Source: an uncultured Gammaproteobacteria bacterium (GTDB lineage: Bacteria; Patescibacteriota; Patescibacteriia; Patescibacteriales; BS150m-G62). From it: a stretch of DNA of 64,000 nucleotides. A program made the position numbers and the translations under genes. Below are positions 35,551-52,631 of this stretch, in pieces (position 1 is the first letter of the stretch; the number at the start of each line of letters is the position of its first letter). The DNA lies in contig CAZMSR010000001.1 in assembly GCA_964569045.1 (NCBI GenBank), forward strand, positions 2,593 to 66,592, given 5' to 3'. The notes beneath the pieces were generated by a model. That model was not told the DNA's origin, searched no databases, and was given only the letters and a program-made list of their open reading frames with translations.

Positions 35551-36198
35551 ATGAACCTAGATATTAAGCAAAAGATTGCACTCGCAGGGCTGTTTGTAGT
35601 AGCTATGTTTGTTGTAATTATAGGAATAAGAGGCATAAGAAGCACTATTTATGGCGCAGACTATAAGGAAAAAAAGGCCGGAAAAAGTATTGATTACTCA
35701 AATTTAGAGCAAGACTATAAGGCTAATGCAAACATAGAAATTAAATTAACCGATACTGACGGCGACGAATTAACTGATTGGGACGAGCTTAATGTTTATA
35801 ATACTTCGCCATATATTCCGGATTCAGACTCAGACGGGATTCTTGATGGTGTTGAAGTTCAAAATAACTTAGACCCAACTTGTCACAATCAAAAAGTCTG
35901 CGATGGATTAGATCAAGTTCAAGAAAGCACTGTAACTTCTGAAGATGCTTTAAGTAATGAAGTAGACGCTGCAACTCAAGCTAAAATTCAGGCAGTAGTT
36001 AAACAGTTTGATAAAGGTTTTGGTAGTGCAAACAATATAAAAATAGATGTTAATAATCTACCAAGCGAAGTTAAGAATATAACAAACCCGGATGATTTGC
36101 GCAGAATTTTAGAAAAACAAGGCATGAGCAAAGCTATACTAGAAATGCTAAGCAACGAAGACTTAATGAAAACATATAATTCTTTGATTAATAAATAA
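35551..36198 (+). CDS. N-terminally anchored protein with thrombospondin-type-3-like repeats (anchor 1)
   Basis: One TM helix. DTDGDELTDWDELNVYNTSPYIPDSDSDGILDGVEV. Ends 6 nt before the giant gene. Confidence 0.6.
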   Translation: MNLDIKQKIALAGLFVVAMFVVIIGIRGIRSTIYGADYKEKKAGKSIDYSNLEQDYKANANIEIKLTDTDGDELTDWDELNVYNTSPYIPDSDSDGILDGVEVQNNLDPTCHNQKVCDGLDQVQESTVTSEDALSNEVDAATQAKIQAVVKQFDKGFGSANNIKIDVNNLPSEVKNITNPDDLRRILEKQGMSKAILEMLSNEDLMKTYNSLINK

Positions 36199-36204: not shown

Positions 36205-39200
36205 GTGCATAGGAAAAATTTTTTTCTAAAAACAAAAATTTTCAAACAAAAGGCAATAAGTGCCTTGATTTTTGTTTTTATATTTGTGCAAGTGGGTGTG
36301 CCGATAGTGGAGGCTCAGTCAAGACCTAGTAATTTGGCGCTAGCTTCTGCAGAAATAAAAACTAAAGCATATGGAACCGAGCAAGTAATTAAAAAACAAA
36401 CTAGGACTGACAAGGATCGTACTGCTGAGCAGATTCGTCAAGAAAGGTTAAAACAGCTTAATGATAAAGCAAAAAAAAGTACTTTTAGAAGTGTTGTTAG
36501 TAGTGTGCTTAATACTATAGCCTATGACACTGCTTCTTGGCTTGGGGCTGGAGGAAAAGGTCAAAAACCATTGTTTATTCGCGAAGGTTGGGGTGAATAT
36601 TTATCTAATATTGGTGATCAAGCTCTTGGGCAGTTTATTGAAGAGTTTGCTAAAGATTTTGTAGGAGACGCTTGTAACCCGGAAGTTGGTTTAAAAATAT
36701 CACTTGGGATGAAAGGTCAGCAACGACCAACTTTTGGAAAGTGTAGTTTTACTCAGATGGTTGATAACTGGGAACAAGCAATTGAAAGCACTGACTTTTT
36801 AAATAATTTTCAAAGTGTATTTGATCTGAATAATAGCACAACAGATATAAGCATGGCATTAAACGCAAATATTGGATTGCTTGAGTTTCAATTAAGTGAG
36901 CAAGAAAAAGGAAAAAGAACAAGAGGTAATACAGATGAAAATCTTCCACGTGACCCTGCCGGTCGTGCCACAGCACCGCCAGGAATGGCATCGGTTTTAA
37001 CCGAAGAGCCTCTTGAATGGTTTAGACAAAACTGCGCTAATCCTTCCGGAGATACTGTTTTGGTAGAAGCTATGACAGTATTTGTTTGTCAATTGTCTTA
37101 TACTGCTTTTGTGACTTTGCTTATGGATTTACTGGCTGATAAGCCAACAGTAACCGAGCCATATAGTGGTTCGTATAGTTTTGAGTCCGGTCCTAGAGCT
37201 GATGGAATATCAGGAACTAATGAATATATGCGTAGTATTCTTCAGCCTAATTTTGATATTCGCGGTGATTATGAAATTTTATCTGAATTAGTAAACTGCC
37301 CTAATCCTAATAAAGCCGGGCCAACAAACTGCGTAATAACTGAAAATTTTCGTAAGGCAATTTCAGAACGTAAAACAGTTAAAGAGGCTTTAAATGGATA
37401 TTTAAATCCGCAAGGAATATTTGGTTTTGTTTCTGAGGATCTAGAGCCATTGTATAATGAAGGTTATCCGTATAGATCAATGATTATTTTGCGTAAATTT
37501 AGAATTTTGCCTGTTGGGTGGGAATTAGCTGCTGAATATATAAGAAATAACCCAAGCGTTGGTACATTTAATTTGCAAGATCTTGTTGATTGTTATGATT
37601 CGACAGATAGTAATATGGCATGGTGCAGTGGCTTAGTTGACCCTGATTGGGTATTAAAAGCGCCGCTTAATAGCTGTAAATTAGAAGGACCAGGCCCGGA
37701 GATTATGCGCGAAAGTGTTGTGGGGCAAGGTGTTAATTCAAGAAGATCAGTTCAGCGTAATACTACATATTGTGCTGATGAGCAAAGTTGCATTAAAGAG
37801 CGAGATGATGGGTCATGCGATGCACACGGATATTGCACGGAAGAAAAACGTACTTGGAATTTTGCTGCTGAATCATGCAACCCTATTTTTAATACTTGCG
37901 ACACTTTTACTAGAGTAGATAATGATTCTTTTACTGTTAGTTATTTGCAAAATACTTTAGACACATGTGGTCAAAATGAAATTGGTTGCAAAGAATATTC
38001 AACTAAAGTTGAAACAGATGAATACGAGCCAATAACAGATGTTGTTAGTGAGTGGAGTGGTAGTCAAACTGATTCTATATTTTTTAATTCAAATGCAGCA
38101 GAGTGCACTGTAGACGAAGAAGGTTGCCATATGTTTTTAAGAGAAGCTACTAATAATACACCTACTTATTTAAAATTGCTTCCTGATTACTTGGGTCAAG
38201 TTTGCTATAATTTAGGCACAGATACAAGCGAATACTATAATTACAAAGAAGATCTAACGCCTGAAGTTAAAGCGCGTTGCGAACAATTTGTAAGGCGTTG
38301 TAATGCTAGCGAAGTAGGTTGCGAGCTATATACTGACATAGTACGCGGTGATAAGATCCCGGCTAAAATAACAACTTTAAACCAATGCCCAAATGAATGT
38401 GTTGGCTTTGATGAGTATCAAAAACGCGAAACTATTTTTGAAAGTAGTGAGAGCGCCTATTTTATCCCAAGATACGCTGATACTTGCCGCCTGGACATGG
38501 TTGGTTGCGATGAATTTACAAACTTAGACGAAGTAGCCCGCGGCGGTGAGGGTCGCGAATACTATGTTGATTTAAAACAATGCGTTGACCCGGACGAACC
38601 GGAAGGCGAAGCTTGCTCTAACTTTTACATTTGGGAGCAGCTTAACACCGGCCCGCAGTTAAACGTATTAAATTTAAAGGCAGATGCAAAAAATGGTGGC
38701 GCACCCGTAGTTACAAACAGCAATGAAGATTGCACAGAACAAACTTTTAACAATCCGGAGCATCCTAACTACAACCCTGATTGCCAAGAATTTTTAGACG
38801 AAAACGGTGAAAAGCACTACAAGCTTTACTCTAAAACAATTACCTGTTCCCAAGATTGCCATACCTACAGAAGAGCCGGGCAGAATATTGATTATAGTAT
38901 TGCAAAAAATAGTTGCAATAACGGAAGCAACGGTGATGAAAAAGGCTGGAGTTCAACACATAACGCTTGCGTGGTTTGTAAAAACGGTGGTAAATGGAAT
39001 TCAAGCCAAGGCGCTTGCCTCTATAGCGCTATACCCGGCGAAGGGCGTTTATGCTCCCAAGAATTTGCCGGTTGTCGCGAATACTCAGGCCCACAAGCTG
39101 CTAATGTTCGCGAAATCGCGCGCTATGATTTTGAAGGGGTTCATCCTTCTTTAGCTGATTGGAGTAATGCTGAAATAGCTAACGAAGCTTTGTTAATAAA

Positions 39201-42200
39201 CGGGCAGTCAATAACAAATACTTCAAGTCAAAGCTCAGTCTCACTTAATTTGGGCGGTAGATTAAGACCCGGTAGCACATATATACTTTCTTTTTACGTA
39301 AAGCCCGGTAATACTGCTAATTTTAAAGTGAAAATTGATGATACTAATGGTTCTGAGATTAAAGGACTAAAGCAAGACAAATGGCAAAGAGTTGAAGAAT
39401 TAATAACTTTAACCAATAGCGTTGCTAATCAAACAATGTCTATTGGATATGATAATGGAAGCACAAAATTCTACATTGATGACTTTAGGTTAATAGAGGT
39501 GATTGACAGATATTATTTTATGAAAGATTCTTTTGAGATTCCATCAATGTGTCATCAAGAATATTGGAAGCTTCTTAGTCCGGAAAATTATCCGATTCCT
39601 TTTAATGAAGGTGGTTATCCTTTTCCAAATTATTCGCTTGGATGCCGCGAATATCAAGATAGAGAAAGCGCTTCACATTTTTTAAAAGATTTTACAGAAC
39701 TATGCCAAGAAACAGCAGTCGGCTGCGAACGCATGATAGATACCCATAATTATACAGGTGAGGGAGCTGAAGCATGGAATGAAAGTAATCCGAATGAAGG
39801 CGATGATGCCTGCGATTCCGGAGAACAAAGCTGCGTTTCTGTTCTGGCTAATAACTTAGTGTATGTAGTATATGATACTGAAAAGCAGTGTAATGCAGAT
39901 GATAAAGGTTGCTCAAGATTTGGCGAGAAAAAGTCTGTTGCAGGTACTCCGTATTACGAAGATGCTTATATTAAAAATAATCCGGATCATTATAGTACTT
40001 CAGTAGATTCTGATGCTATTTTATGCACTCAAGATGGTATTAGTTGTAAAGCTTGGATTTCGGAAATTAATGGTACGCGCTATTTTAAAGATCCGGAAGG
40101 CAAGGAGTGTGAATGGCGAGCTAATAGTGATGGAATAGAAAATTGGTATCAAAAAAAAGCGAATCGTTGTGATACAGATAGCAACGGAGTAATTAATGAT
40201 AGTGAAAATCTTCCAGCTAATAGTGGAGCGAATGGTGCATTAAGCCCGGCTTGCGCAAGCGCTCGTTCTTGCAGTGTAATCACTGATCCGTCTGATAGCT
40301 GCCAAAAAGACAGTGATTGTGGTAATAATACTTGCATTGATTCGCAGTGTCGTTATTCTTGTATTCGTGATAATCGAGATCATGTGTGCGGTAATCAAAA
40401 TGCTTTAAAAACAATTGGCTCAAATGGTGTTAATTCTCACATTAGTCAGCCAAGTGGCAGTGATGGTTGGGTTGGGGTTTGCCCAATTCGTGAATCCGGA
40501 TGCACAGAATATATTGATCCAATTGCAGAATTTAGCACAAATTTAGTATTTAACCCAAGCGGTGAAGAAATTGCCGGAGTTAATAATGCAGGTTGGGAAA
40601 ATCATACTCCAAACGGATTTAAGCAGGAGATCGAAGTCGAACCGGCTACGCTTTATACAATTAAAGGCGCAACTAAGTTTCAGTGTGATAATGCTATAGA
40701 TAAAATGAATTCAGATAATGTTTTGGTAAATGTGGCATTAACTACAGATATTACTTTGACAAATGGAGAAAGTATTTTATTTAAAACAAATAATAATGCT
40801 AATAAATGTACTGTTTTTAGGGATGGTGATGTAACGGAAGTTATCTTACGCAAAGCAGAGGCGAATTATAGGTTATTAAAAGATATTGACAGAAGTTCTT
40901 GCCATGAACCTGATTTTGATAGTGGCTGTATTTTGTTTAATGAAAGAACTCAGTTTGGCTATAGCGAGAATATGAGTAGTCTTTCTTATAATGCTGACAA
41001 TTTAGAGGCTTTGAATAATTGTACAAATGGAGCTAATTGTGACTCAAACCAAATTTTAAAAGTTGAACCTAATAGAGTTTGCGCTGAATGGCTTGCGTGC
41101 AGGTCAATGGTTAAGGTTAGGGATGAAGATGGTCAAGAATCAAGTGTTTGCCTAGGTGTTGGAGCATGTAATGGTCTTGATAGTAATGATGAATGTAGTA
41201 GTTTTGTAAGAAAAGAAAGAATAAATAATGACTATACAAAAGATAGCGTAACAGCGGCAAGTGTTAGTAATTTATCCGGATATTCTAAGATTGGGTACTC
41301 AAAATATAAAAACAATGCTCAATTGCCATCATTTGAACGAAATGATTTATTTTCATTAAGTGCTATGAGTCAGGTTGGTGAAATTGCAGTAGTGCCAAAT
41401 GGTAGCTTTGAATTTTCAGGTGAGAATGGATACCCGATTGGTTGGAGTTGGGATAATCAAGAAGAAGTTGATAAGGTTTGGACACCAAATGTTTTTAAAG
41501 TAATTAATAGTCCTTATGAGGTAAAAGAAGTTGAAGTTATTAATTTTTCACCTGCCGGAGAGGGATTTATTAAAATTGGTTCATCTCATGTAGTAATTTC
41601 AGAAGAAATAGATGTTGAGCCTCAAAGAGATTATATTTTTACTGCCTATATTAATACTCAAAATTTACAGGTTGGTAACGGTGTGATTGATATTGTATCA
41701 GCCGGAGAATCTATTACTAGCACAACAGAAGATCAAGGAGGTGAGGGTTGGATATTTAAAATAAAGAAATTTAGATCAAATTCAAATCAAATTAATATTA
41801 AACTATATAATGATGACAACGATTCTTCAGGAGTTTTTTATGTAGATGGAATAAAATTAAGACCGGCTTTACATACTAGAATTGAATCTACTGAAACTGA
41901 AGACCAAACTAGTTCTGACAATTGGTATGTGCCGCAATCATGCAAACTTTATCCTGAGCCAAGTTCCTTAGCTTGCGAGTATATTGATGACTCCGGTGTT
42001 AATCAAAGGGGGTTGTATGGATATTGCTTAGAATATGATAGATATCCGGGTGATGAAAACACATGTTTGCTTTGGTATCCGGTTAATAGAGTTAAAGGCG
42101 ATTGGATAGAAGAAGGTGCGGGCTATAGTGATAGGTTTCCTCTTTATTATTGCCTTGAAGCAGTTGGATACTGCTCTGGAACAGAAGGTGAGATACCGGC

Positions 42201-44076
42201 ATTGTATTGTAATAAGTTAGTTAAGGTTGTAACAGAAACAGGTAAAAGTAAGTTTTGGTATTCAAGGGTTAGGGAAGGCAGTGATCATAGTATTGAATTT
42301 AGTAATGCAAGTGAAAATAAGCATATTTATTGGGGGGCAATTAATCCAATGGGGCACGAGATTGTTAATTTAGGTTATTCGCGTGATTCTAGTCCGTATG
42401 GTAGTATTGTAGCTCCTGCGCCAACTCATAATCCTTTTGAGTGGGATGGGTTAAAGCGACGAGGCAAAGAAGTTTTAAAAGAACCATTACAGATTTATGA
42501 TGCAATATCAGGAGAGGGATTAATTAGAGCCGGTACCCCGTATTATGGCAATGGAATTACTTGTCGAAAAGTATTTGAGCGTGAGCGATACGGAAGTTGT
42601 GGGACTCGTCATGAAGTAAATAGAGGAATTTGGGATTCATGTACAATGAAGTCATATAATGATGATTGTAACACAGCTACACCTTTTGCCTCCACAACCA
42701 ATGAATTAGGAGAAGTTATAACTACTCATGTTGATTGTTGCGGTGGTCGTGGTAGAAAATTAACAGTAACAACACAGTGTTTTAGTGATTTAAAATATAA
42801 TATAGCTGAAAATGAGGTGCAGGCAGTTAGTGGGTTAAAATCAATTTTTGCTCAAAGTTATGGTACTTGGGTATGGAATGGTAATGATGAAAGTGGTTTT
42901 TATGAAAAAGTGCCAGATGATATGGATATTACAACTAAACAGCAATGTGTTTCAGATGATCCAGGAACTGTAGGCGTAGAATGCGCAATGAATAATTCTA
43001 ATGACTGCCCATATGGTTATTGCCCTAAAAGTAATAATGTGCAAGAAGGGGACAGTTTAGGCTATTATCAGTGCGGTGTCTTGAATATATCTTGTTGTCC
43101 GGAAAATAAAAAAGTTTTAATTGATTCATGTAAAAGTATTGATGGAGATTTTAATTGCGTTGAGGGTTTTTGTGATAAGCTTCCAAGCCAAGCATGTACT
43201 ATAGAATATAGATGTAATTTAACAGACACAACTCAGGTAATAGTTGATACTCATGATTGCAGTCAATATAATAATGCAATATGTAAAGAAGTTACTACTC
43301 TTAATGCTTCAAAAACTTGTATAGGTGGCGAGAATCATGGGCATGTGTGTCAGGCGCATGCATGTATAAATGGAGTTTGTGATCTTGTTTCAACTTATGA
43401 GTCTAGCAATAGTAGTTCAGGAAGTCATAGCTGGGAACCTCCGAATAGTATTTGTGAGAATAATACACGCCCTGATTACCATAATGATTCTTCTAAAAAT
43501 GGTAATGGTAATAATAGTTATTGCGCAGTAACGCCAAGTATTACAAATATTCGTATTGATAATCCAAATATAGTTAAAACAGGTTTTGTTAATTTAACTT
43601 TTAATTCAGATGTTAATGAAGATCAATTACCATTAACAATGGTTTCAGTTGATTGGGGTGATGGAAAGGAAACAACAATTACTGGTGCTGACATGCTTGA
43701 TAGGTCAAATAATAAATACCCTCACTCATTCTATCATTTATACGACTACTGGGATTTAAAAAGAAGTGATGCAGACAATGATGGCATCATCTGTGAAACA
43801 GAGAGTACTCCAAGTAACCGCAATTATTGCAAAATTAAACCAAAAGTAAAAATTCGTGATAACTGGGGGTGGTGTAATGCTACTGATACTGCTACTGATA
43901 CTACTACTGATACTACTACTGATACTACTACTGCTACTGATACTACTACTGATACTACTACTGCTACTGATGCTACTACTACTGATACTGATACTGATAC
44001 TGATGCTACTACTACTGCTACTAATTGCAATTATTGGGAGGAATATAACGATGATATTAAAGTTTATGAAAAATAG
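36205..44076 (+). CDS. giant (2623 aa) Cys-rich exported surface protein with CBM4_9-like, PKD-like and Thr/Asp-repeat regions
   Basis: Uninterrupted ORF from GTG 36205. Signal peptide ..VPIVEAQS. About ten GCxE(Y/F)-type motifs. Two jelly-roll-like segments ending FYIDDFRLIEV and FYVDGIKLRPA. VDWGDGKE near the C-terminus. Confidence 0.8.
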   Translation: MHRKNFFLKTKIFKQKAISALIFVFIFVQVGVPIVEAQSRPSNLALASAEIKTKAYGTEQVIKKQTRTDKDRTAEQIRQERLKQLNDKAKKSTFRSVVSSVLNTIAYDTASWLGAGGKGQKPLFIREGWGEYLSNIGDQALGQFIEEFAKDFVGDACNPEVGLKISLGMKGQQRPTFGKCSFTQMVDNWEQAIESTDFLNNFQSVFDLNNSTTDISMALNANIGLLEFQLSEQEKGKRTRGNTDENLPRDPAGRATAPPGMASVLTEEPLEWFRQNCANPSGDTVLVEAMTVFVCQLSYTAFVTLLMDLLADKPTVTEPYSGSYSFESGPRADGISGTNEYMRSILQPNFDIRGDYEILSELVNCPNPNKAGPTNCVITENFRKAISERKTVKEALNGYLNPQGIFGFVSEDLEPLYNEGYPYRSMIILRKFRILPVGWELAAEYIRNNPSVGTFNLQDLVDCYDSTDSNMAWCSGLVDPDWVLKAPLNSCKLEGPGPEIMRESVVGQGVNSRRSVQRNTTYCADEQSCIKERDDGSCDAHGYCTEEKRTWNFAAESCNPIFNTCDTFTRVDNDSFTVSYLQNTLDTCGQNEIGCKEYSTKVETDEYEPITDVVSEWSGSQTDSIFFNSNAAECTVDEEGCHMFLREATNNTPTYLKLLPDYLGQVCYNLGTDTSEYYNYKEDLTPEVKARCEQFVRRCNASEVGCELYTDIVRGDKIPAKITTLNQCPNECVGFDEYQKRETIFESSESAYFIPRYADTCRLDMVGCDEFTNLDEVARGGEGREYYVDLKQCVDPDEPEGEACSNFYIWEQLNTGPQLNVLNLKADAKNGGAPVVTNSNEDCTEQTFNNPEHPNYNPDCQEFLDENGEKHYKLYSKTITCSQDCHTYRRAGQNIDYSIAKNSCNNGSNGDEKGWSSTHNACVVCKNGGKWNSSQGACLYSAIPGEGRLCSQEFAGCREYSGPQAANVREIARYDFEGVHPSLADWSNAEIANEALLINGQSITNTSSQSSVSLNLGGRLRPGSTYILSFYVKPGNTANFKVKIDDTNGSEIKGLKQDKWQRVEELITLTNSVANQTMSIGYDNGSTKFYIDDFRLIEVIDRYYFMKDSFEIPSMCHQEYWKLLSPENYPIPFNEGGYPFPNYSLGCREYQDRESASHFLKDFTELCQETAVGCERMIDTHNYTGEGAEAWNESNPNEGDDACDSGEQSCVSVLANNLVYVVYDTEKQCNADDKGCSRFGEKKSVAGTPYYEDAYIKNNPDHYSTSVDSDAILCTQDGISCKAWISEINGTRYFKDPEGKECEWRANSDGIENWYQKKANRCDTDSNGVINDSENLPANSGANGALSPACASARSCSVITDPSDSCQKDSDCGNNTCIDSQCRYSCIRDNRDHVCGNQNALKTIGSNGVNSHISQPSGSDGWVGVCPIRESGCTEYIDPIAEFSTNLVFNPSGEEIAGVNNAGWENHTPNGFKQEIEVEPATLYTIKGATKFQCDNAIDKMNSDNVLVNVALTTDITLTNGESILFKTNNNANKCTVFRDGDVTEVILRKAEANYRLLKDIDRSSCHEPDFDSGCILFNERTQFGYSENMSSLSYNADNLEALNNCTNGANCDSNQILKVEPNRVCAEWLACRSMVKVRDEDGQESSVCLGVGACNGLDSNDECSSFVRKERINNDYTKDSVTAASVSNLSGYSKIGYSKYKNNAQLPSFERNDLFSLSAMSQVGEIAVVPNGSFEFSGENGYPIGWSWDNQEEVDKVWTPNVFKVINSPYEVKEVEVINFSPAGEGFIKIGSSHVVISEEIDVEPQRDYIFTAYINTQNLQVGNGVIDIVSAGESITSTTEDQGGEGWIFKIKKFRSNSNQINIKLYNDDNDSSGVFYVDGIKLRPALHTRIESTETEDQTSSDNWYVPQSCKLYPEPSSLACEYIDDSGVNQRGLYGYCLEYDRYPGDENTCLLWYPVNRVKGDWIEEGAGYSDRFPLYYCLEAVGYCSGTEGEIPALYCNKLVKVVTETGKSKFWYSRVREGSDHSIEFSNASENKHIYWGAINPMGHEIVNLGYSRDSSPYGSIVAPAPTHNPFEWDGLKRRGKEVLKEPLQIYDAISGEGLIRAGTPYYGNGITCRKVFERERYGSCGTRHEVNRGIWDSCTMKSYNDDCNTATPFASTTNELGEVITTHVDCCGGRGRKLTVTTQCFSDLKYNIAENEVQAVSGLKSIFAQSYGTWVWNGNDESGFYEKVPDDMDITTKQQCVSDDPGTVGVECAMNNSNDCPYGYCPKSNNVQEGDSLGYYQCGVLNISCCPENKKVLIDSCKSIDGDFNCVEGFCDKLPSQACTIEYRCNLTDTTQVIVDTHDCSQYNNAICKEVTTLNASKTCIGGENHGHVCQAHACINGVCDLVSTYESSNSSSGSHSWEPPNSICENNTRPDYHNDSSKNGNGNNSYCAVTPSITNIRIDNPNIVKTGFVNLTFNSDVNEDQLPLTMVSVDWGDGKETTITGADMLDRSNNKYPHSFYHLYDYWDLKRSDADNDGIICETESTPSNRNYCKIKPKVKIRDNWGWCNATDTATDTTTDTTTDTTTATDTTTDTTTATDATTTDTDTDTDATTTATNCNYWEEYNDDIKVYEK
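43879..44022 (+). repeat. in-frame ACT/GAT/GCT trinucleotide tandem repeat (48 codons of T/D/A)
   Basis: Encodes ATDTATDTTTDTTTDTTTATDTTTDTTTATDATTTDTDTDTDATTTAT near the C-terminus of the giant protein. Generates spurious ORFs in other frames. Confidence 0.9.
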
Positions 44077-44098
44077 TTTTAAGTGAATTGAGTTAATT

Positions 44099-44135
44099 AA
44101 AAAATTCGAGCTTTATGCAGATACTCGAATTTTTT
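44099..44135. terminator. intrinsic terminator after the giant gene
   Basis: AAAAAATTCGAG - 13-nt loop - CTCGAATTTTTT. 12-bp perfect palindromic arms with a T-run. Lies 23 nt after the stop. Confidence 0.6.
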
Positions 44136-44194
44136 AATCCCAAAAAAATATGCTACAATAATTATAATAAGATAAATATATTTTTTATATTAAA

Positions 44195-45280
44195 ATGGTT
44201 AATTCAAAGCTTTTGTTTAAATATTTTAGTTTTGTTATTGCAGTTTTCGCGCTTGGATTTTTTGTTTTGCCTAAAACTTCTTTTTCGCGCGACGTTTCTC
44301 CGGACGCAATAGCCGTAAGGGTTATTCCAAACCCTAATCATTATTCAGTAACCCGCTGGTATAAAGAACAAGGATTTCGCGGCAACCCTCAGCAATTTAA
44401 AGTAGACGAATACCGGGCCCTGCGAGACGGCTCAACAGTCTATGTTAATGCAGCAAATATTACCGGAGAGTGTGTTAATGGAAATGGAACAGTGGTAACA
44501 AATTCTATAGTCTGCTCAACCGATGATGAATGCGTAGCAGAATATGAAATTGATACTCCTCCATACACTTGTAACTTAACTAACTTTTACACCAACATCT
44601 ACGTAATAGCTAAAAATAGAGGCGCGGATGCTTTAACCGAAAATATTTTTACGCAAGTTTTGAATTCTTTTAAATTAAACGCAAACTTACCGGAACCCGG
44701 TATTTGCCAAAATTTGGCAGATACAGATTGTGCTAATGATAACGATTGCGAAGCAGGTGAAGAATGTGATACTGCAAATGGTCAAAATCCGGGAGTTTGC
44801 CAATTAAAATGCGACTACGACTATGACTGCCCTAGTGAATCCTATTGCTCATCTGACAAAGCCGAAGTAATTCGCGATGTTAAGCGTTTGGCCGATCTAA
44901 CTGACATTAAAATAGCTCTTAACAATTACAGAGGTATTCATGGCCATTACCCTAAGCTTGAGTCCGGCACATATGTACCCCACATGACCCTTTCCACCTG
45001 GCCTAGTTGGCAGAAAACCTTAGCTCGTGAGTTAGGCTTACCAAGCTTGCCAACTGATCCTATTAATAGGTTAGGTGAGTGTGTTTCTGCTTATAATCCT
45101 AATGGCGACGATAATGGATCTTCGATTCAAATTTCCCCGGACCCAATAACCTGCTGGGATGAAGTTAATAAGATTTTTGCAGATACAGATCCTAATGATT
45201 CAGGCCCGAATTTACCCTCAAATAGCCATGTATACTTATATATAACCGATCCTGAAGGATTAGGCTATGGAATTGAATAA
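44195..45280 (+). CDS. anchored/secreted Cys-rich protein with a pilin-head-like segment
   Basis: N-terminal hydrophobic helix. KRLADLTDIKIALNNYRGIHGHYP...LPTDPIN resembles the globular-domain motif of type IV pilins/pseudopilins, but there is no class III (G/FTLIE) leader. Confidence 0.55.
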   Translation: MVNSKLLFKYFSFVIAVFALGFFVLPKTSFSRDVSPDAIAVRVIPNPNHYSVTRWYKEQGFRGNPQQFKVDEYRALRDGSTVYVNAANITGECVNGNGTVVTNSIVCSTDDECVAEYEIDTPPYTCNLTNFYTNIYVIAKNRGADALTENIFTQVLNSFKLNANLPEPGICQNLADTDCANDNDCEAGEECDTANGQNPGVCQLKCDYDYDCPSESYCSSDKAEVIRDVKRLADLTDIKIALNNYRGIHGHYPKLESGTYVPHMTLSTWPSWQKTLARELGLPSLPTDPINRLGECVSAYNPNGDDNGSSIQISPDPITCWDEVNKIFADTDPNDSGPNLPSNSHVYLYITDPEGLGYGIE

Positions 45281-45338
45281 ATGCTTAATAATTATGATTG
45301 TAGTATTTATTAATATTTATAAGTTTTTTAATATTAGA

Positions 45339-46223
45339 ATGAAATATTTATTTACAATTTGTTTGCTATTTTTTGGTTGCGCAATGCAGGCTAAGGCCTT
45401 TAATATATGTGCAGTAATGGAGTCTGGGTTTGTAACCGAATTAAGTGGCGGAGCATGCCCCGGTAGTGCATCCGGTGCTTCAGCGGAGGTGTCTTATGAA
45501 TTTAAATTAGGAGCATCTTGTGGTGATGGTGTAGTTGGGCTAGCAAGTTCAGAGGAATGCGATTGTGGAAAAGATTCTAATGGAAAGCGAATATTAAGAT
45601 GCTTGGGAGGAGGCACAGGCCATAATGACCAGTATATTTGCACTGATTGTAGATGGAATAATAGTGGTTGGCTAGGAGATGGAATAACAAATGGAAGCGA
45701 AGTGTGTGATCCGGTAGTAAATTTAATTGACGGCACAAAACCTCGAATTAAGCCATGCACTGTTCAAACAAATTTTCCAAATTATTGCGCTCAAGAGTTA
45801 TCAGGTAATCAAAAATGCGCATCTAACGGTAAATCATGGGAAGAGTGCGATGCATTAAGGCCAGTGCCTTCTGAAGATGAGTTTTCGCAGTGCAAAGCTA
45901 TTGGTAATACATTAAGTGATTATGTATGTTGTGTTTTAATAGGGTGTGATCAGGATGGATGCGCTTGTTGTGGTAGAGGCAAAGCCGAGACTCCGGAAGG
46001 TTATGATACTGTTGGATCAATGGATGCCACATGGAATCCTGACAAGTCGCTTAAGGATGATTTTCGAAGTAATAACCAAAATATATATAATAGCTGTGGG
46101 GAGTATTCTGAAGCCGGGAATGATCCAGAAAATGCATGTAAGTTAGTTAGATCAAATGATAATCCACGGAATTGGAAAACAGTAGTAAATAATGCTACCG
46201 CTCGTCATAAATGTTGGAAGTAA
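45339..46223 (+). CDS. secreted Cys-rich protein (CGDG..EECD repeat type)
   Basis: Start moved to ATG 45339 (signal peptide MKYLFTICLLFFGCAMQAKA). The mature N-terminus FNICAVMES is shared with the 47225 product. SCGDGVVGLASSEECDCG motif. Confidence 0.6.
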   Translation: MKYLFTICLLFFGCAMQAKAFNICAVMESGFVTELSGGACPGSASGASAEVSYEFKLGASCGDGVVGLASSEECDCGKDSNGKRILRCLGGGTGHNDQYICTDCRWNNSGWLGDGITNGSEVCDPVVNLIDGTKPRIKPCTVQTNFPNYCAQELSGNQKCASNGKSWEECDALRPVPSEDEFSQCKAIGNTLSDYVCCVLIGCDQDGCACCGRGKAETPEGYDTVGSMDATWNPDKSLKDDFRSNNQNIYNSCGEYSEAGNDPENACKLVRSNDNPRNWKTVVNNATARHKCWK

Positions 46224-46236
46224 TTAATATATTAAT

Positions 46237-47088
46237 ATGAAAAATATTATACTTTTTGTGTCCATAATTACGTTTGTTGTGTTTGTATTTTTGATTAGCG
46301 GAGTTATATATATTAATAGTCTTAAAGATGAATCTTTAAAAGATATTGATTATTCGGATGATAAAATAAAAAAAACTATAATTAATAAAGAAAAAAAAGA
46401 TAATAACAAAAAATATAAAAAAACAATTATTGAAAATGCCTCTTTACTTCAGCAGCACAAACCAAGTATTTCTAGTGGTCAGTTAAATGAATATATGAAT
46501 ATAATTCAAGAAGATAAAAGCATTAAACATTGCCTTGAGTTTGAGGATAGGGAGTTATGCCAATCTTCTGTAGCATTTATTGCCGGTGATATGGATTATT
46601 GCCATTATTTTGAAGGAAGTTTTAAAAGCAAAAAAGAAGCAAATTTATTTACTAATAATTGTGAAAAATTAATAGTTGTTGAGCAAGGTGCTAAAAATGT
46701 AGAAGCTTGTCAGAAATTAACAGGTGATAAGTACTATGATTGTTTAAGAGGTATTTTTCATATTTTTTTAAATAAAAAGGATTGCGCTACAATAAAACAT
46801 GCCCAAGCTAGGAGTTTGTGCATGGATATTATTACTTACAAAAATGCATATATAAAATACAATCAAGAATTATGCAAGGATGTTAAAGATAAAAAATTAA
46901 ACAATTATTGTAAAAGTAATATTTTAAGTAAAACGCAAGACACTGATAATGATGGGTTACCGGATCTAGACGAAATAAGAATTCATCAAACAGACCCCAA
47001 AAACCCCGACACCGACGGCGATGGCTACACAGATGGCGAAGAAGTGCAGGCCGGGTATAATCCATTGGGAAAAGGTAAGCTTAAATAA
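46237..47088 (+). CDS. N-terminally anchored Cys-containing protein with C-terminal thrombospondin-type-3-like repeats (anchor 2)
   Basis: One TM helix. C-terminus DTDNDGLPDLDEIRIHQTDPKNPDTDGDGYTDGEEVQAGYNPLG. Paralog of 49867..50643. Confidence 0.6.
   Translation: MKNIILFVSIITFVVFVFLISGVIYINSLKDESLKDIDYSDDKIKKTIINKEKKDNNKKYKKTIIENASLLQQHKPSISSGQLNEYMNIIQEDKSIKHCLEFEDRELCQSSVAFIAGDMDYCHYFEGSFKSKKEANLFTNNCEKLIVVEQGAKNVEACQKLTGDKYYDCLRGIFHIFLNKKDCATIKHAQARSLCMDIITYKNAYIKYNQELCKDVKDKKLNNYCKSNILSKTQDTDNDGLPDLDEIRIHQTDPKNPDTDGDGYTDGEEVQAGYNPLGKGKLK
46939..47063 (+). repeat. 125-bp near-identical segment, copy 1 (pairs with 50494..50618)
   Basis: 4 mismatches in 125 bp by eye against 50494..50618, while the rest of the two genes is strongly diverged. 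Confidence 0.85.
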
Positions 47089-47104
47089 AATTATTATAAA
47101 AAAA

Positions 47105-47127
47105 ATGACTTATAAAATATAAGTCAT
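47105..47127. terminator. perfect 10-bp hairpin after anchor-2 gene (weak terminator candidate)
   Basis: ATGACTTATA - AAA - TATAAGTCAT, preceded by an A-run. Only a short T-rich tail follows. Confidence 0.3.
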
Positions 47128-47224
47128 ATTGTAAATTATTTATTTCAGAAGATTTAAAATTCTTGGAAGCATTAGTATACCGACAAAGAGTGCTCCAAAT
47201 AATGTGGCAATAATTTTTTAACAA

Positions 47225-49858
47225 ATGCTAAAAAATTTACTCTTAATAATAGTACCGGTTTTTATATTTTTACTATCATTTAATAGCGCTAAAGCTTTTA
47301 CTGTTTGCGCAGTAATGGAGTCTGAATACACGCTTAGTAGTGGAGCAAGTGGAAATTGCGGTAGCACCATAACAGGTATAAACACTGTTGAGGTTCAACA
47401 ATTTTTAGTTAATAACCCACCTATCTTTACAGGCTGGAATTTTTCAAGAGCAAATACCGGTAGTAACTATTCAGCTCACATACAAGCCAAAGACCCTGAT
47501 GGGAACGAAGTCTTCTGGGAAGTTAATGCGGACAGTGATAGATGTACTAATAATATGGAATGCACAACTCAGGGTGATGAGGATTGTGGTAATACTTGGG
47601 ATGATAATAAACATTTTTGGACAACTTGGGTTGATGATAAAATTGAATGGGGCGCAGATGCTATGGATAATTTAAAAGCCGAGAGAACTTTTATTAGAAA
47701 CCAAAAAAAATTTGACTTTGGAATTGCCGGCAATACTAGTAAATGTTTTTTTGATGTGACTATAAGAGATCGATTTAATGAAAGTGAAGGGCTAGCAACA
47801 ACAAAAACTTTTTGGGTAGAAACAAACCCTTTGCCGGAGATTATAATTAATAGTTATTCTAATCCATTTGAACCTACTGAAGATAATTATCAATTCACAT
47901 TCTCATTTGAAGCAAAAAGTGTTTATACCGACAATTATCCTCTAGAATTAGAAATTACTGTAGAACCTAGTGAATATACTTCAATAGAAGATTGGTTTAA
48001 TTCTTTTGGAATTGATGATTTTAAGGTGGTCCAAGCTTTAGGTGAAAACGAAGAAAGATTTAAGCAAGTTGAAGATGGAACTAAATATGAATACAATATA
48101 ATCGGCAATTTTAAACCACATCAAGTAGTGATTCAAGGCAAGCATTCTTATTCTATAGATGTAAAAATTAAAGTAACAGACGTTAATGATAATGTTTCAG
48201 AAGAAAATGCAACACTAACAATAAAAAATAATGCGCCGACTATAACTCCTGATTGTGAAGATTTTTCTGACTTAAGCAATATTAATATAGAAACAGATGA
48301 ACAATTTATTTGCGATATTTCTATGGTTGATACCGCTGGCCAACATTTGAATTTTTATTACAAATTACCGGAAGGCCTTAGAAGCAATCAACACACAACA
48401 TCATTAGGTTATCCTTATTTGATTATTGGGGATAGGCCAATTGAATGCGCTCCAAATTGCCCTGAATTTTATGTAAAAGCCATTGACCAATTTGGCGCAG
48501 AAACAAAAGTAGATTTAAATTTTAATATAACAACAGTCTGTGGCGATGGGCGAGTGCAGTCACCGAATGATAGTGGCGATAACGAGGTTTGTGATCGATA
48601 TGAAAGTGATCCTATTACTGGATTAAATGGTTGGAGTTGCTTTAATGCTTATGGAACAATTGGTTGTAGTAGTGATTGCAAGAGTAGGACATGTAGTGGT
48701 GGGGGTGGTGGTACTCCGGGGCAGTTGTATGAAGGTATTTGTGGAGATAGTGATACACAAGGCCCGGAAGAATGTGATGCTATCTCTGCATGTTGCATTG
48801 AGCGAAATACTACAACTGGCATTGGGTGTAAATTTGAATGCACCTCAAGTAATTATTCCGAAGCTAATATTGGCTTCGGTTCGCTACCTATTGATTCAAT
48901 TGAATTAGCAAATAATGAAACTACGCAAATGAAAATCCCAGCATGCCGGGTGCATTATGATTTGAATATGAGACTTGAAAGTATTGGAGATCTTGCACCT
49001 TTACCAAATTTAGCAATTATTTTTATAACCGATACTTCCGGGAGCATGAAATACAGTCAGCCAACAAATGGTAGAGAATCAGATGGTAATATGCCGGCTA
49101 TAAAAACAGCTTTAGATAATGTTTTGGATTCTTTGCATGATAAAGCAAAAGAAAGTCCGGGCTCTACTATAAAAGTTGCTTTGCTAGAGTCGAATAATGG
49201 ATTTACCGATTATGATAGCTATGATGAGCAAACAGTTTTTCGTGATATTTCTAATTTAATAAATAATGATTATCTGAAAAATGTTGTGGCACTATATGAT
49301 TATGGTTCTGCAAGTTCCGGTGGGGGAGGTGGCGATAATAATAATAGAGTGATAGATATTGCAGATCAGATGTTTAACGATTCCTCTTTAAGCGGATATA
49401 GTAAAATTATTGTAGCTTTAGCTGATAATAGAAATTATAATAGGGACCATCTTCATTCGGTAAAAAGGTATGGTGAAGTTTATACAATTTCTTATGAAAG
49501 AGATTATGATTATGAGATTTGTGATATGTCTAGTGGAACTAGGTGTGATATTTCTATGGATGCAAGTATAGATAATTATACAAATGATTATGCTTATTTA
49601 GGTGGACCTAATATTTCCGGTGTGTATAGAAAGATTATCGAACAGGCTACTGTGGCCCCTGCAGGTGAAGTAACTATTATTTTTGGCAACTCAACAAGTC
49701 ATACTGTATCTACTAATGATTTTGGAAATAAAATTTTTCAATTAGATAATATTTGTTCCGACTCACCACGTTCTATACCACTTAGTGTAGAATTTAATGG
49801 TGGTGGTAAAGTAAAATTTAGCGAGGCAAAGTTTGAGTACTGCGAAGTTTGTAATTAA
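47225..49858 (+). CDS. secreted Cys-rich multidomain protein with Ig/cadherin-like repeats and C-terminal vWA domain
   Basis: Signal peptide ..SFNSAKA. Mature N-terminus FTVCAVMES. VCGDGRVQ..EVCD and ICGDSDTQGPEECD motifs. vWA MIDAS IFITDTSGSMKY. Confidence 0.7.
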   Translation: MLKNLLLIIVPVFIFLLSFNSAKAFTVCAVMESEYTLSSGASGNCGSTITGINTVEVQQFLVNNPPIFTGWNFSRANTGSNYSAHIQAKDPDGNEVFWEVNADSDRCTNNMECTTQGDEDCGNTWDDNKHFWTTWVDDKIEWGADAMDNLKAERTFIRNQKKFDFGIAGNTSKCFFDVTIRDRFNESEGLATTKTFWVETNPLPEIIINSYSNPFEPTEDNYQFTFSFEAKSVYTDNYPLELEITVEPSEYTSIEDWFNSFGIDDFKVVQALGENEERFKQVEDGTKYEYNIIGNFKPHQVVIQGKHSYSIDVKIKVTDVNDNVSEENATLTIKNNAPTITPDCEDFSDLSNINIETDEQFICDISMVDTAGQHLNFYYKLPEGLRSNQHTTSLGYPYLIIGDRPIECAPNCPEFYVKAIDQFGAETKVDLNFNITTVCGDGRVQSPNDSGDNEVCDRYESDPITGLNGWSCFNAYGTIGCSSDCKSRTCSGGGGGTPGQLYEGICGDSDTQGPEECDAISACCIERNTTTGIGCKFECTSSNYSEANIGFGSLPIDSIELANNETTQMKIPACRVHYDLNMRLESIGDLAPLPNLAIIFITDTSGSMKYSQPTNGRESDGNMPAIKTALDNVLDSLHDKAKESPGSTIKVALLESNNGFTDYDSYDEQTVFRDISNLINNDYLKNVVALYDYGSASSGGGGGDNNNRVIDIADQMFNDSSLSGYSKIIVALADNRNYNRDHLHSVKRYGEVYTISYERDYDYEICDMSSGTRCDISMDASIDNYTNDYAYLGGPNISGVYRKIIEQATVAPAGEVTIIFGNSTSHTVSTNDFGNKIFQLDNICSDSPRSIPLSVEFNGGGKVKFSEAKFEYCEVCN

Positions 49859-49866
49859 ATTTTTTT

Positions 49867-50643
49867 ATGAATAAACAAGTAAAAATTTTTCTATTTTCTA
49901 TTTTATTTTTAATTGTTTTTTTTACTATCACTATATTTGCATTAAGAAAAATAGTTAATCAGAAAGAAATTAATATTCAACAAAACCAAATTAAAGACAA
50001 TAGTAAAAATACTGAAGAATTAATGCAAGAGAAAAGTGATGAAAAAGAAAATGACAATAAAATATATAGTGAAATAAAAATATCAAAAGATTACACTAAA
50101 TGCCAAAATATTAGCAATGATTCTAAAAGAGATTTGTGTTACTTTTTATTAGGGCTTGAATCAAAAGACAAGGAGGTATGTAAATTTATTCAAAAAGAAA
50201 GTCAAAAAGAAGAGTGTGAAAACAAGGTTATGTATAATTTTGCATTAGACTCTGATGACATAGAATTATGCAATTCTGTGAAGAATAAAAGATTGCTTGA
50301 TTCGTGCATAGTACGAATAATATCAGATAAAGCTTTTTCTAAAAGTGACTGTCAAAAATTAAATACTCTTCAACAAGAGATTTGTTTATCATATATACAA
50401 TTTAATGACATTATTAAAAAGAGTGATATAAATAAATGCGATTCATTAAATAAAGCTGACCAAAGTGAATGTCAAGACATATTAAATAGTAAAGACACTG
50501 ATAATGATGGGTTACCGGATCTAGACGAAATAAGAATTCATCAAACAGACCCCAAAAATCTCGACACCGACGGCGATGGCTACACAGATGGCGAAGAAGT
50601 CCGGGCCGGGTATAATCCTTTGGGAGCAAGCAATCTTAAGTAA
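49867..50643 (+). CDS. N-terminally anchored Cys-containing protein with C-terminal thrombospondin-type-3-like repeats (anchor 3)
   Basis: One TM helix. C-terminus DTDNDGLPDLDEIRIHQTDPKNLDTDGDGYTDGEEVRAGYNPLG. Starts 8 nt after the vWA gene. Confidence 0.6.
   Translation: MNKQVKIFLFSILFLIVFFTITIFALRKIVNQKEINIQQNQIKDNSKNTEELMQEKSDEKENDNKIYSEIKISKDYTKCQNISNDSKRDLCYFLLGLESKDKEVCKFIQKESQKEECENKVMYNFALDSDDIELCNSVKNKRLLDSCIVRIISDKAFSKSDCQKLNTLQQEICLSYIQFNDIIKKSDINKCDSLNKADQSECQDILNSKDTDNDGLPDLDEIRIHQTDPKNLDTDGDGYTDGEEVRAGYNPLGASNLK
50494..50618 (+). repeat. 125-bp near-identical segment, copy 2 (pairs with 46939..47063)
   Basis: See copy 1. Differences are two C/T changes and a GTGCAGG/GTCCGGG patch. 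Confidence 0.85.
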
Positions 50644-50759: not shown

Positions 50760-52199
50760 ATGCTCGAAATTTTGAAAAAGTATAATGAATTACCTCGAGA
50801 GCTCCGGGCTAAATTAGCTGCACCGGAGGTTTTAGCTATGGTAGAGAAATTAGAAAATATTTACGAACGAAAGCTTTCTCAGATTATTATGCGGGTTATG
50901 ATTAAAGAGCTAGAGGTTGCAGAATTAGTTGAGCAGTTTGTATATATTTACAAGTTAGAACGAAGTAAAGCTGAAGAGCTTGTGGAAAAATTAAAAAAGA
51001 ATATTTTTTGTCAAGTGAGTGATTACTTAAAATTTGAAGATACTGTTTGTGCAGTTGACTTTAAAGATAGCATGAAGCAAGTAAAAATTAGTGTAAACGT
51101 AAAAGAGCAAGTAGAAAGAGTTATAGATAAAGCCGAATTTAGTTTTGCCTCAGAAATGCTTGCAAATAGATTTAAAGACATTATAAAAACTAATATAGTA
51201 GGAGTAAGAGATTGTTTAAGCGTTAAAGAAACTTTAGCTAAGCCTGTGAATAAAGGAGGGGTAGGGCTTAATGAGGAAGAAATAAATAAGGTTATTAAAA
51301 TATTAAAATGTAAAGGCGATTTATTAAAAGAATTAGAAAAAAAAGAAGCTAAAAAAGAAGCGCCGGCTATAGGGTTAGACGTAGCTAGCTTGCGAGATGT
51401 ACCTTATGATTTAAATAAACTAAGGGAAATGAGTAAAAAAGGAGCAGAGCCAACACCTAAAAAACCACTAGAAATGACAAAAGAAGAGTTAAGTGCAGTG
51501 CCGGTAGAATCAGTTAAGCCGGAATCTCAAATTAAAAAAGAAATATCTAGCGCGGTTCCAAATGCACAAGAAGTTAAACCTTTAGAAAAAGTATTAAAAA
51601 TTGACCCTGCACCACAAAAAGAATTAGCAAAAGAAGTATTAGATACCACGCCAGAAGCGGTAGTTAAGAAGCCTTTGAAGAAAAAGTCTAGGTTTTTAGA
51701 TAATTTAAAAGCAATTTTACCGGAGCTTTCAAAACCTAAAGAAACAGTAGAAAACGGAATAAAAATTGTTACTAAGCCAAGTTTGCCAAAAGAAAAGTTA
51801 CAAAAACCAATTGTGAATCATGTAGTAGAAAACGGCAAGGTAAAAATGGAAGATATTCGCTATGTTAAGCGAACAATGGGTCCGATTGATGAGTTAGCTT
51901 ATTTGAGTTTAATGGATTTTCGGCGTTTGCACCAAAACCCGGCTGGAGCTATAATTAAAATAAAGGAAAAAATCGACTTACTTGGGGAATATTCATATGA
52001 ACGTAAGCAGCGCGGTATAAAAGCCTGGAGACAAAATCCGGTTAATAGGCTTTATTTAAAAATAGGAGAACTTAGTATGGCAAAATCAAAGCCCATTAAA
52101 GATATTGCAGAAGATTTAAAGCAAGATCAAAAAGACTACTTAAATGAAGATGAATTTAATGCCATTGGTGAACTAAATAACGAATTAAAATATTTTTAA
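50760..52199 (+). CDS. hypothetical K/E/P-rich protein with structured N- and C-terminal domains, first gene of the T4SS-like sub-block
   Basis: 479-aa ORF with 12-nt spacing to the PrgI-like gene. No catalytic motif recognised. Confidence 0.5.
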   Translation: MLEILKKYNELPRELRAKLAAPEVLAMVEKLENIYERKLSQIIMRVMIKELEVAELVEQFVYIYKLERSKAEELVEKLKKNIFCQVSDYLKFEDTVCAVDFKDSMKQVKISVNVKEQVERVIDKAEFSFASEMLANRFKDIIKTNIVGVRDCLSVKETLAKPVNKGGVGLNEEEINKVIKILKCKGDLLKELEKKEAKKEAPAIGLDVASLRDVPYDLNKLREMSKKGAEPTPKKPLEMTKEELSAVPVESVKPESQIKKEISSAVPNAQEVKPLEKVLKIDPAPQKELAKEVLDTTPEAVVKKPLKKKSRFLDNLKAILPELSKPKETVENGIKIVTKPSLPKEKLQKPIVNHVVENGKVKMEDIRYVKRTMGPIDELAYLSLMDFRRLHQNPAGAIIKIKEKIDLLGEYSYERKQRGIKAWRQNPVNRLYLKIGELSMAKSKPIKDIAEDLKQDQKDYLNEDEFNAIGELNNELKYF

Positions 52200-52211
52200 A
52201 AGCTAGCTTAC

Positions 52212-52631
52212 ATGAAACAGTTTACAATACCTCAGTTTATAGATGTTGAAGATAAAATTTTAGGGCCTTTAACGGTGCGTCAGTTTTTAATAATGCTTGT
52301 ATGCTCAATGATACTATTTGTGTATTACAAGGTTTTTGATTTTACTTTGTTTGTGGTTGCAGGATTAATAACTTTTGGAGTATTCGGAATACTGGCTTTT
52401 GCGCGAATTAATGGCAGACCATTTCATTTTTTTATACTAAATATAATCCAGACTCTAAAAAAACCGGGTTTAAGAGTTTGGAATAATACTGATGTATCTA
52501 AAATGACTGATGAAATTAAAGAGGAAGAAAAAGTCGACTACATTGCCGTTGCACCAAAGCCAATAACAAGTTCGCGCTTAACAGAATTATCTTTAACAGT
52601 AGATACATCAGGAACATACAAAACAAAATAA
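52212..52631 (+). CDS. PrgI/VirB3-like small membrane protein
   Basis: N-terminal FTIPQFIDVEDKILGPLTVRQF followed by two TM helices. Immediately upstream of the VirB4-like ATPase. Confidence 0.65.
   Translation: MKQFTIPQFIDVEDKILGPLTVRQFLIMLVCSMILFVYYKVFDFTLFVVAGLITFGVFGILAFARINGRPFHFFILNIIQTLKKPGLRVWNNTDVSKMTDEIKEEEKVDYIAVAPKPITSSRLTELSLTVDTSGTYKTK

Follow-up and report, generated by a model that had tools for sequence, protein, structure and literature searches.

What is a secreted-looking protein of more than 2,600 residues doing at the edge of a type IV secretion system (T4SS) locus? The question arises in a stretch of 64,000 nucleotides from contig CAZMSR010000001.1 (assembly GCA_964569045.1), analysed as a whole and called the window below, which comes from a Falkowbacteria/ABY1-type Patescibacterium. 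The window encodes a 2,623-residue cysteine-rich protein, called the giant here. We favor the reading, with a probability of about 45%, that the giant is a Sec-exported, disulfide-stapled, glycan-binding surface fiber for host contact alongside the T4SS. For the question of what the Patescibacterial T4SS carries and how it reaches the host, the giant gives a concrete candidate: a predicted exoprotein of about 2,600 residues, conserved at the T4SS locus edge in hundreds of species of the class that contains the phylum's type genus.

The gene and its predicted export signal

The open reading frame (ORF) of the giant is open throughout from 36205 to 44076 on the forward strand, and full-length homologues of 2,300–3,300 residues share its architecture. 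It starts with GTG 7 nt past the stop of the upstream gene, and AGGG lies 4–7 nt before the GTG. Residues 1–38 (36205..36318) form a predicted Sec-type signal peptide. A basic n-region is followed by a 19-residue hydrophobic core and by VEA-QS, with cleavage predicted after VEA, which is the n-h-c layout of a Sec signal peptide. The Kyte-Doolittle maximum of 2.55 falls at residues 17–35, and the N-terminal hydrophobic segment aligns in the homologues. The assignment used two simple criteria, n-h-c layout and hydropathy. The open frame and these criteria bear out the original prediction, made from the DNA letters and their translations, of an uninterrupted frame that begins with a signal peptide. 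A transmembrane (TM) helix considered at residues 284–311 was rejected because the segment is amphipathic, not hydrophobic, in the family consensus. Hydropathy and the family consensus revealed no further conserved TM segment after the signal peptide. These two properties, a signal peptide and no other conserved TM segment, indicate that the giant is probably exported. The protein contains 110 Cys (4.2%), is acidic (382 Asp and Glu versus 233 Lys and Arg), and has 1.2% His.

The giant contains a probable cysteine-hairpin repeat

All ten instances of the GCxE(Y/F) motif quoted in the original prediction are present, at residues 594, 640, 705, 767, 956, 1146, 1173, 1235, 1432, and 1574. The repeat unit is C-x5-G-C-x-x-(Y/F/L/M), which is a C-x6-C pair whose second Cys is preceded by Gly and followed, three positions on, by an aromatic or hydrophobic residue. 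The chance expectation was determined from 2,000 shuffles within 100-residue blocks, which retain the local Cys density. Cys pairs seven apart (C-x6-C) were observed 14 times versus 5.8 expected (z 3.7). The longer pattern Cx6Cxx[YFM] occurs 9 times versus 0.44 expected, with a maximum of 4 in the 2,000 shuffles, and GCx[ERD][YFM] occurs 7 times versus 0.15. The CxxC (1 versus 5.9 expected) and CxC (0 versus 5.9) spacings are depleted. The predicted hairpins are found in two regions. Cys-rich beta region I (residues 466–962; 37600..39090, forward strand like all parts of the giant) contains C588/595, C634/641, C699/706, C761/768, and C950/957, and these Cys are invariant. Cys-rich region II (residues 1101–1450; 39505..40554) contains (G)C1147, C1167/1174, C1229/1236, C1274/1281, and C1426/1433, as judged by motif count, hhalign, and conservation.

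The unit is conserved in the homologues and from one unit to the next. Nine unit positions in 29 aligned sequences give 261 instances, and the exact C-x6-C spacing is retained in 260 of them; position +6 is Gly in 91% and position +10 is Y/F/L/M in 92%. Sub-alignments around individual units were compared profile versus profile with hhalign. Units C588, C634, C699, C761, C950, C1167, C1274, and C1426 mutually align in register with probabilities of 45–95%; the alignment is weaker for unit C1229 and absent for three control segments. Low-confidence AlphaFold2 (AF2) models show strands on both sides of the Cys pairs, as expected of a stapled beta-hairpin. No named Cys-rich repeat family was found in Pfam-A, where CBM_4_9 was the sole match for the giant at E≤1 and for the 18 + 15 homologous tiles at E≤0.05, and NCBIfam and the PDB gave no match over the repeat. 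The original prediction of a recurrent motif outside any named family is thus supported, and neither outcome that it had named as refuting was observed: the motif positions are conserved in homologues, and the searches matched no characterised Cys-rich family. The giant appears to define a new short disulfide-hairpin repeat, and its N-terminal part a new large domain family.

Domain organization of the giant

The N-terminal domain (residues ~95–465; 36487..37599) is predicted to be alpha-helical from AF2 helices of low confidence. It belongs to no known family, has no Pfam or PDB match, and its column identity is 0.44–0.77 per 50-residue block. The N-terminal query region (residues 95–560) carries the invariant acidic and basic residues D138, E440, D525, E526, E532, R424, R430, K431, and R433.

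The chain also contains jelly rolls that resemble carbohydrate-binding modules (CBMs). Jelly roll 1 (residues ~965–1100; 39097..39504) is CBM4_9/CBM16/CBM22-like. The segment matches PF02018 in 14 of 18 homologues (best E 9.6e-10), the family profile matches the CBM22 4xup in the PDB (E 2.3e-7), and Foldseek gives a probability of 1.0 with template modeling (TM) scores of 0.55–0.64 at a predicted local distance difference test (pLDDT) of 60–85. Jelly roll 3 (residues ~1725–1892; 41377..41880) is CBM4-like. Here the family profile matches CBM4-2 xylanase modules in the PDB (E 0.005–0.01), PF22637 or PF02018 is found in some homologues, and the Foldseek matches are to CBM4/16 with TM scores of 0.58–0.74. 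Between them, a beta-sandwich 2 (residues ~1451–1560; 40555..40884) is tentatively predicted from strands of pLDDT 55–68. The model containing it gave multi-jelly-roll Foldseek matches such as Cry protoxin and Vip3, which suggest a third beta-sandwich at this position. The two jelly-roll segments of the original prediction are confirmed.

The structural evidence derives from two AF2 tiles, residues 95–1110 (18-sequence alignment) and 1111–2105 (15-sequence alignment), with mean pLDDT of 49.8 and 42.1. Modeling in tiles had been proposed at the outset; it yielded usable jelly rolls in models that are both of low confidence elsewhere. In these moderately confident parts the beta-jelly-roll fold is identified by Foldseek with a probability of 1.0 and target-normalised TM scores of 0.55–0.74 against CBM16, CBM22, and CBM4. 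When both models were compared with the PDB by Foldseek, all matches were to CBM-type jelly rolls or proteins containing them, and the family profile matched PDB sequences at jelly rolls alone, in two places (CBM22, CBM4, and CBM16). Nothing beyond CBM_4_9 was found in Pfam and NCBIfam for the giant or in Pfam for 18 + 15 + 19 homologous tiles. Pfam matches to HpsJ were rejected as noise over a low-complexity linker. The hairpin region, the helical N-terminal domain, residues 1900–2100, and the C-terminal domain have no family matches in Pfam, NCBIfam, or the PDB.

The idea that the giant is a carbohydrate-active or cell-wall-degrading enzyme draws on these modules: CBM4/16/22 are typical appendages of glycoside hydrolases. 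In this reading the N-terminal domain would be catalytic and of a new type, an analogue of VirB1 that opens the envelope of the host or of the cell itself, and the CBM-like modules would direct it to polysaccharide. This domain is among the most conserved stretches and has invariant acidic and basic residues, and VirB1 homologues are rarely found beside virB4 in most Patescibacterial classes (PMC12102498). Against this idea, there is no hydrolase, lyase, or transglycosylase match in Pfam, NCBIfam, or the PDB, even with the family profile, and the long helices of the low-confidence model are bundle-like rather than a known glycosidase fold. An enzyme also leaves about 2,000 residues of stalk hard to account for, and we consider this reading improbable.

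The remainder of the chain alternates between conserved and variable parts. A conserved Cys-containing domain of no known family (residues ~1900–2100; 41902..42504) has a column identity of 0.59–0.69 and invariant C1913, C1924, C1941, and C1954. It is followed by a hypervariable, indel-rich, Cys-rich region (residues 2101–2400; 42505..43404) with a column identity of 0.09–0.33 and a gap fraction of 0.4–0.8. The conserved C-terminal beta domain (residues 2401–2558; 43405..43878) has the pattern WGDG...H.Y...DNWGW in an alignment of 19 sequences. It is Ig-like at best, and in the PDB its profile matches only de novo Ig designs (E 0.0018). The VDWGDGKE segment that had been called PKD-like exists, but the PKD assignment was rejected: no PKD model (PF00801 or PF18911) matches the whole giant or 19 family C-terminal domains at E≤1. 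A true PKD domain in the window ORF at 22281–24854 scores 3.4e-16, so the method would detect one. The Thr/Asp repeat noted earlier near the C terminus is present at residues 2559–2606 (43879..44022). It is a DNA tandem repeat (43878–44022; TRF period 6/30) and a lineage-specific insertion, absent from the 18 other sequences of the C-terminal alignment.

Disulfides or metal sites

Disulfides are, we infer, the better reading of the giant's Cys. The 56 invariant Cys are an even number, and the C-x6-C spacing is exact with Gly at +6. The AF2 models place strands on either side of the Cys pairs. The CxxC and CxC spacings are rarer than expected, and the protein is poor in His. DsbA-like genes near the locus in relatives also argue for disulfides. 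The original prediction had left room for metal coordination. Cys that bind metals or carry extracellular redox chemistry would suit a protein so rich in Cys, encoded by an anaerobe whose window sequence has no Dsb gene. However, CxxC occurs once versus 5.9 expected, CxC never versus 5.9, and His is only 1.2%. The Cys form isolated pairs seven apart and not clusters of four, and the single CxxC excludes haem-binding CxxCH. Clustered CxxC or CxxCH of the zinc ribbon, Fe-S, or multihaem type was not found in the giant. These data make metal or redox chemistry scarcely credible.

In about 29 of 83 related loci, a gene for a membrane-anchored DsbA-like protein lies within about 5–8 kb of the giant. 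Such genes are beside POR genes or after the T4SS cluster, and are therefore not specifically tied to the giant. Two such genes, in related loci L001 (28379–28799) and L061 (5073–5849), encode a membrane-anchored DsbA-like thioredoxin-fold protein with an F.C.(F/Y)C motif. POR and [FeFe]-hydrogenase, cited earlier as the visible anaerobic metabolism, are both confirmed in the window. Patescibacteria are without respiratory quinones (PMC10633639). With Cys-rich exoproteins concentrated at one locus of an anaerobe, one may ask by what route extracellular Cys become oxidised without quinones.

A large, fast-evolving family with frozen cysteines

A search of 5.8 billion proteins found 627 relatives of the giant. 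The best 120 of these are 2,008–3,149 residues long; their named records are all "hypothetical" or "carbohydrate binding domain-containing," and their named sources are Falkowbacteria, Parcubacteria, or the Patescibacteria group. The phmmer search of the full library with residues 95–560 matched 1,195 representatives at 50% clustering, a lower bound for the size of the family, and 531 of these have E≤1e-30. The top 150 matches are nearly all N-terminal parts of proteins longer than 2,000 residues and the rest are giant fragments; these 150 of the 1,195 cover the giant family and its fragments only, and remote relatives in other architectures lie outside this view. A scan of one genome per GTDB species identified 416 loci that encode a giant relative. 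The family is large and unnamed, and it appears confined to the ultrasmall Patescibacteria and to one class of them. Literature searches found no published description of it. Many of the related metagenome-assembled genome records are titled "uncultured Gammaproteobacteria bacterium" despite the Patescibacteria-specific locus, which is probably bulk mislabelling.

Conservation was analyzed in an alignment of the giant with 28 relatives at 39–47% identity. Cys conservation is 90% or higher at 67 of the 110 positions, and the 207 invariant columns include 56 of Cys. Column identity reaches ~0.7 at residues 101–150 and 351–600, falls to the low values of the hypervariable region at 2101–2400, and the chain is conserved again at residues ~2400–2560. 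The giant is 33–47% identical among relatives, compared to 77–89% for VirB4 from the same contig set; for one shared contig pair the values are 45% and 89%. Such fast evolution is typical of surface proteins, and the giant's pattern of rapid divergence with frozen Cys is consistent with such a location.

The giant adjoins a T4SS gene cluster

The following neighbors of the giant are encoded on the forward strand. Directly upstream is U1 (35551..36198), a 215-residue membrane-anchored protein (TM at residues 8–26) with TSP3-like acidic repeats and the constant upstream partner of the giant. Downstream are D1–D5 (44195..50643), five exported Cys-rich proteins (3.2–8.2% Cys), two with TSP3_bac and one with a weak VWA/MIDAS match in Pfam. 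The T4SS core block (50760..55943) consists of D6 (479 residues), a PrgI/VirB3-like protein, a TraC/TrsD-like protein, a VirB4-like ATPase, and D10 (211 residues, with TM), based on PF12666, PF19044, and PF12846, and on PF26593 in orthologues. The VirB4-type ATPase gene (52212–55289) is on the same strand as the giant, and ComF follows. ABY1-class T4SS loci include comF, recG, and radA (PMC12102498), and in related loci RecG and a DnaB_C/ChlI-domain protein, read as RadA, are beside virB4. The window cluster fits the MPF-FATA-like Patescibacterial T4SS of that study. ParAB, ComEC, GAPDH, RF-1, and DnaE in the window show that the setting is chromosomal.

Gene order was compared in 80 loci fetched of the 416, using subsets with adequate flanking sequence. 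Of 68 loci with sufficient sequence upstream, 64 have U1 immediately before the giant, and ksgA precedes U1 in 51 of 62. The D6-VirB3-TrsD-VirB4 genes are 4–11 kb downstream of the giant, in the same order and on the same strand, in 26 of the 39 loci with more than 9.5 kb of flank. The linkage of giant and T4SS persists down to 30% identity. In one apparent negative, L086 (CAZHZE010000002.1), the T4SS core is 12.3 kb downstream of the giant. Genes for AdoHcyase, SAM synthetase, riboflavin synthesis, and PfkB are inserted between its giant/VirB6-like and D6-VirB3-TrsD-VirB4 blocks, and the VirB6-like TrbL_3 gene still adjoins the giant.

These observations bear on the idea that the giant is a general cell-surface or envelope protein, such as an adhesin, sheath, or S-layer-associated protein, with no tie to the T4SS, whose position reflects conserved ABY1 gene order near the replication origin. 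Conserved order is not peculiar to the giant: ksgA, GAPDH, AI-2E, and AhpC likewise keep their places, ParAB is about 10 kb upstream, and housekeeping genes can come to lie between the VirB4 block and the block of giant and VirB6. The giant is set apart from the genes that follow by a terminator-like hairpin, and it is unreported in other Patescibacterial classes that have a T4SS. In contrast, the linkage persists at 30% identity while much around it varies, and the VirB6-like gene stays by the giant when the cluster splits. The block of Cys-rich exoproteins also runs unbroken into the T4SS core. Cys-richness in the window (3.2–8.2%) is confined to exported proteins of the block at 34078–50643, and other exported proteins (among them a lamin-tail domain/PKD protein, a peptidoglycan-binding protein, and a TSP3 protein) have 0.1–1.2% Cys. 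A surface protein without a T4SS tie is a possible explanation, with odds well short of even.

Many relatives encode a ~165-residue protein and a ~800-residue TrbL_3 (VirB6-like) protein directly after the giant; in the Falkowbacteria locus L001 the small protein, in the 18824–22523 region, has two C-terminal TM segments. This arrangement could mean that the giant is an integral extracellular part of the T4SS, at the pilus tip like VirB5 or spanning the wall, whose helical N-terminal domain assembles with VirB2-like pilins or VirB6. Patescibacterial T4SSs have VirB2-like pilins and no reported VirB5. VirB5 is helical, as the N-terminal domain of the giant is predicted to be. However, the giant has no sequence similarity to VirB5, and its family is found in one class as opposed to the phylum-wide T4SS. 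No VirB6-like (TrbL_3) polytopic gene or small two-TM protein was found within the window cluster, and the giant is still there. The five exported Cys-rich proteins occupy the place of these two genes in the window, a layout shared by the closest relative, L084. An integral T4SS part therefore receives only slim odds from us.

The hairpin after the giant stop codon (44096..44138, forward strand) has A-run and T-run flanks and a core stem, AATTCGAG/CTCGAATT, at 44103–44131. Its minimum free energy is -14.6 kcal/mol (z -5.8), and 0 of 200 shuffles were as stable. The structure resembles a bidirectional intrinsic terminator, and a TATAAT-like box precedes the next gene.

Several proteins around the giant have features of their own. 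D4 (47225–49858, 877 residues) is exported and Cys-rich; it has CGDG...C repeats, a MIDAS-like DTSGSM, and a weak match (E 0.0033) to VWA, a domain typical of adhesins at pilus tips. D2 (45267–46223, 318 residues, 8.2% Cys) shares the N-terminal motif F(N/T)(I/V)CAVMES with D4. Around the giant are four proteins that have a membrane anchor and TSP3-type acidic (Ca-binding-like) repeats, at 33010–34086 (reverse strand), 35551–36198, 46237–47088, and 49867–50643. The C-terminal ~45 residues of D3 and D5 are nearly identical.

Proposed role of the giant

The reading that we favor makes the giant a multi-domain surface fiber exported by Sec. The alpha-helical N-terminal domain (residues ~95–465) would be the proximal base, docked on the cell envelope, U1, or the T4SS. 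A long stalk would follow, in which nine or more short beta-hairpins, each held closed by a C-x5-G-C disulfide, are combined with further conserved Cys pairs. Three beta-sandwich, lectin-type (CBM4/16/22-like) modules would be interspersed in this stalk. The distal end would consist of the fast-evolving, indel-rich, Cys-rich region and then the conserved Ig-like domain. This orientation, a conserved base and a variable tip, is suggested by the column identity of ~0.7 at residues 101–150 and 351–600 versus 0.09–0.33 at residues 2101–2400. The giant would bind host-surface glycans and hold the epibiont and its T4SS against the host, filling the role of LPXTG adhesins such as PrgB in Gram-positive conjugative T4SSs. 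A phylum-wide survey of Patescibacterial T4SSs from 2025 reported no adhesin of the PrgB type (PMC12102498). In Saccharibacteria, epibiotic growth requires both the T4SS, as tested in a single species, and several adhesins (PMC10633639). The fixed position beside the T4SS and the reported absence of a PrgB-type adhesin make the giant a candidate for the contact function.

A number of points weigh against the surface fiber. Its link to the T4SS comes from synteny within one class, and ksgA is almost as constant a neighbor, so conserved gene order alone could explain the position. With the terminator-like hairpin and the promoter-like site before the next gene, the giant and the T4SS core may be transcribed separately. 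No known T4SS component or adhesin with homology to the giant was found in Pfam, NCBIfam, or the PDB. An LP.[TSA]G motif is absent from the whole giant, and the C terminus is hydrophilic (...DDIKVYEK). DsbA, DsbB, and VKOR genes were not found within the 64-kb window. Because both AF2 tiles are of low confidence, the hairpin geometry, the disulfide pairing, and the fold of the N-terminal domain are provisional. The jelly rolls are putative lectin-type modules whose glycan binding would follow from their likeness to CBM4_9/16/22. Jelly roll 1 of the giant itself matches PF02018 at 20.2–23.2 bits (E 9.7e-5 at 23.2 bits), below the gathering score of 25.9.

A stronger form of the proposal is that the giant is the extracellular contact organelle of a repurposed Patescibacterial T4SS and a new class of component that replaces VirB5/PrgB-type adhesins. 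The helical base would dock on the T4SS or U1, the disulfide-stapled stalk and variable tip would select the host, and at least about 28 conserved disulfides would be formed by an oxidative route in a quinone-less strict anaerobe. We regard this form as unlikely.

Other genes in the window

ComEC is present as two overlapping ORFs, 27057–28682 (DUF4131 and Competence) and 28630–29490 (metallo-beta-lactamase), which may reflect a frameshift, programmed or not, or a genuine split. The ORF at 22281–24854 encodes an exported 857-residue protein with three lamin-tail domains, the true PKD domain, an OB fold, and 0.12% Cys. It is possibly an extracellular, competence-linked DNA-binding protein. Two GGDEF-EAL proteins (138–2441 and 16215–18296), one with GAF and PAS sensors, are accompanied in the window by a sensor histidine kinase (18484–20157). 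The GGDEF-EAL pair is cyclic di-GMP signaling in a reduced genome.

Comparison with known systems

The giant combines features of several known kinds of protein. Like the CBM4_9/CBM16/CBM22 modules of bacterial glycoside hydrolases, two and probably three of its segments have the jelly-roll fold and a weak, consistent profile similarity. Unlike those modules, they are set in a non-enzymatic Cys-rich scaffold and fall below the Pfam gathering threshold. The C-terminal domain is comparable to PKD/Ig-like domains in its W-G-D-G ... H-x-Y ... D-N-W pattern and likely beta-sandwich, but none of the 19 family members matches a PKD model.

The Patescibacterial T4SS is phylogenetically closest to MPF-FATA (PMC12102498). 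With PrgB/aggregation substance, the adhesins of MPF-FATA systems, the giant shares large size, export, a gene upstream of a VirB3/VirB4/VirB6-type monoderm T4SS, and a presumed role in holding the partner cell. It differs in being twice as large, in its 110 Cys, and in its set of domains, and it has neither sequence similarity to PrgB nor an LPXTG signal. Its coupling to the T4SS is a proposal drawn from synteny. Giant proteins of Omnitrophota reportedly also reach thousands of residues and have been proposed to act in host contact. The FhaB-domain giants of Patescibacterium danicum have thousands of residues in reduced genomes, with a proposed role in host contact (PMC11809585). Identity with these proteins was rejected because they are FhaB-type and unrelated; the giant has neither FhaB nor DUF2341. 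The P. danicum giants have no full-length homologues, whereas the family of the window giant is conserved at full length, at one fixed locus, in hundreds of species. Giant surface proteins that bind glycans have precedents, as do adhesins associated with a T4SS; what is new here is the repeat, the N-terminal domain, and the conserved T4SS-adjacent locus.

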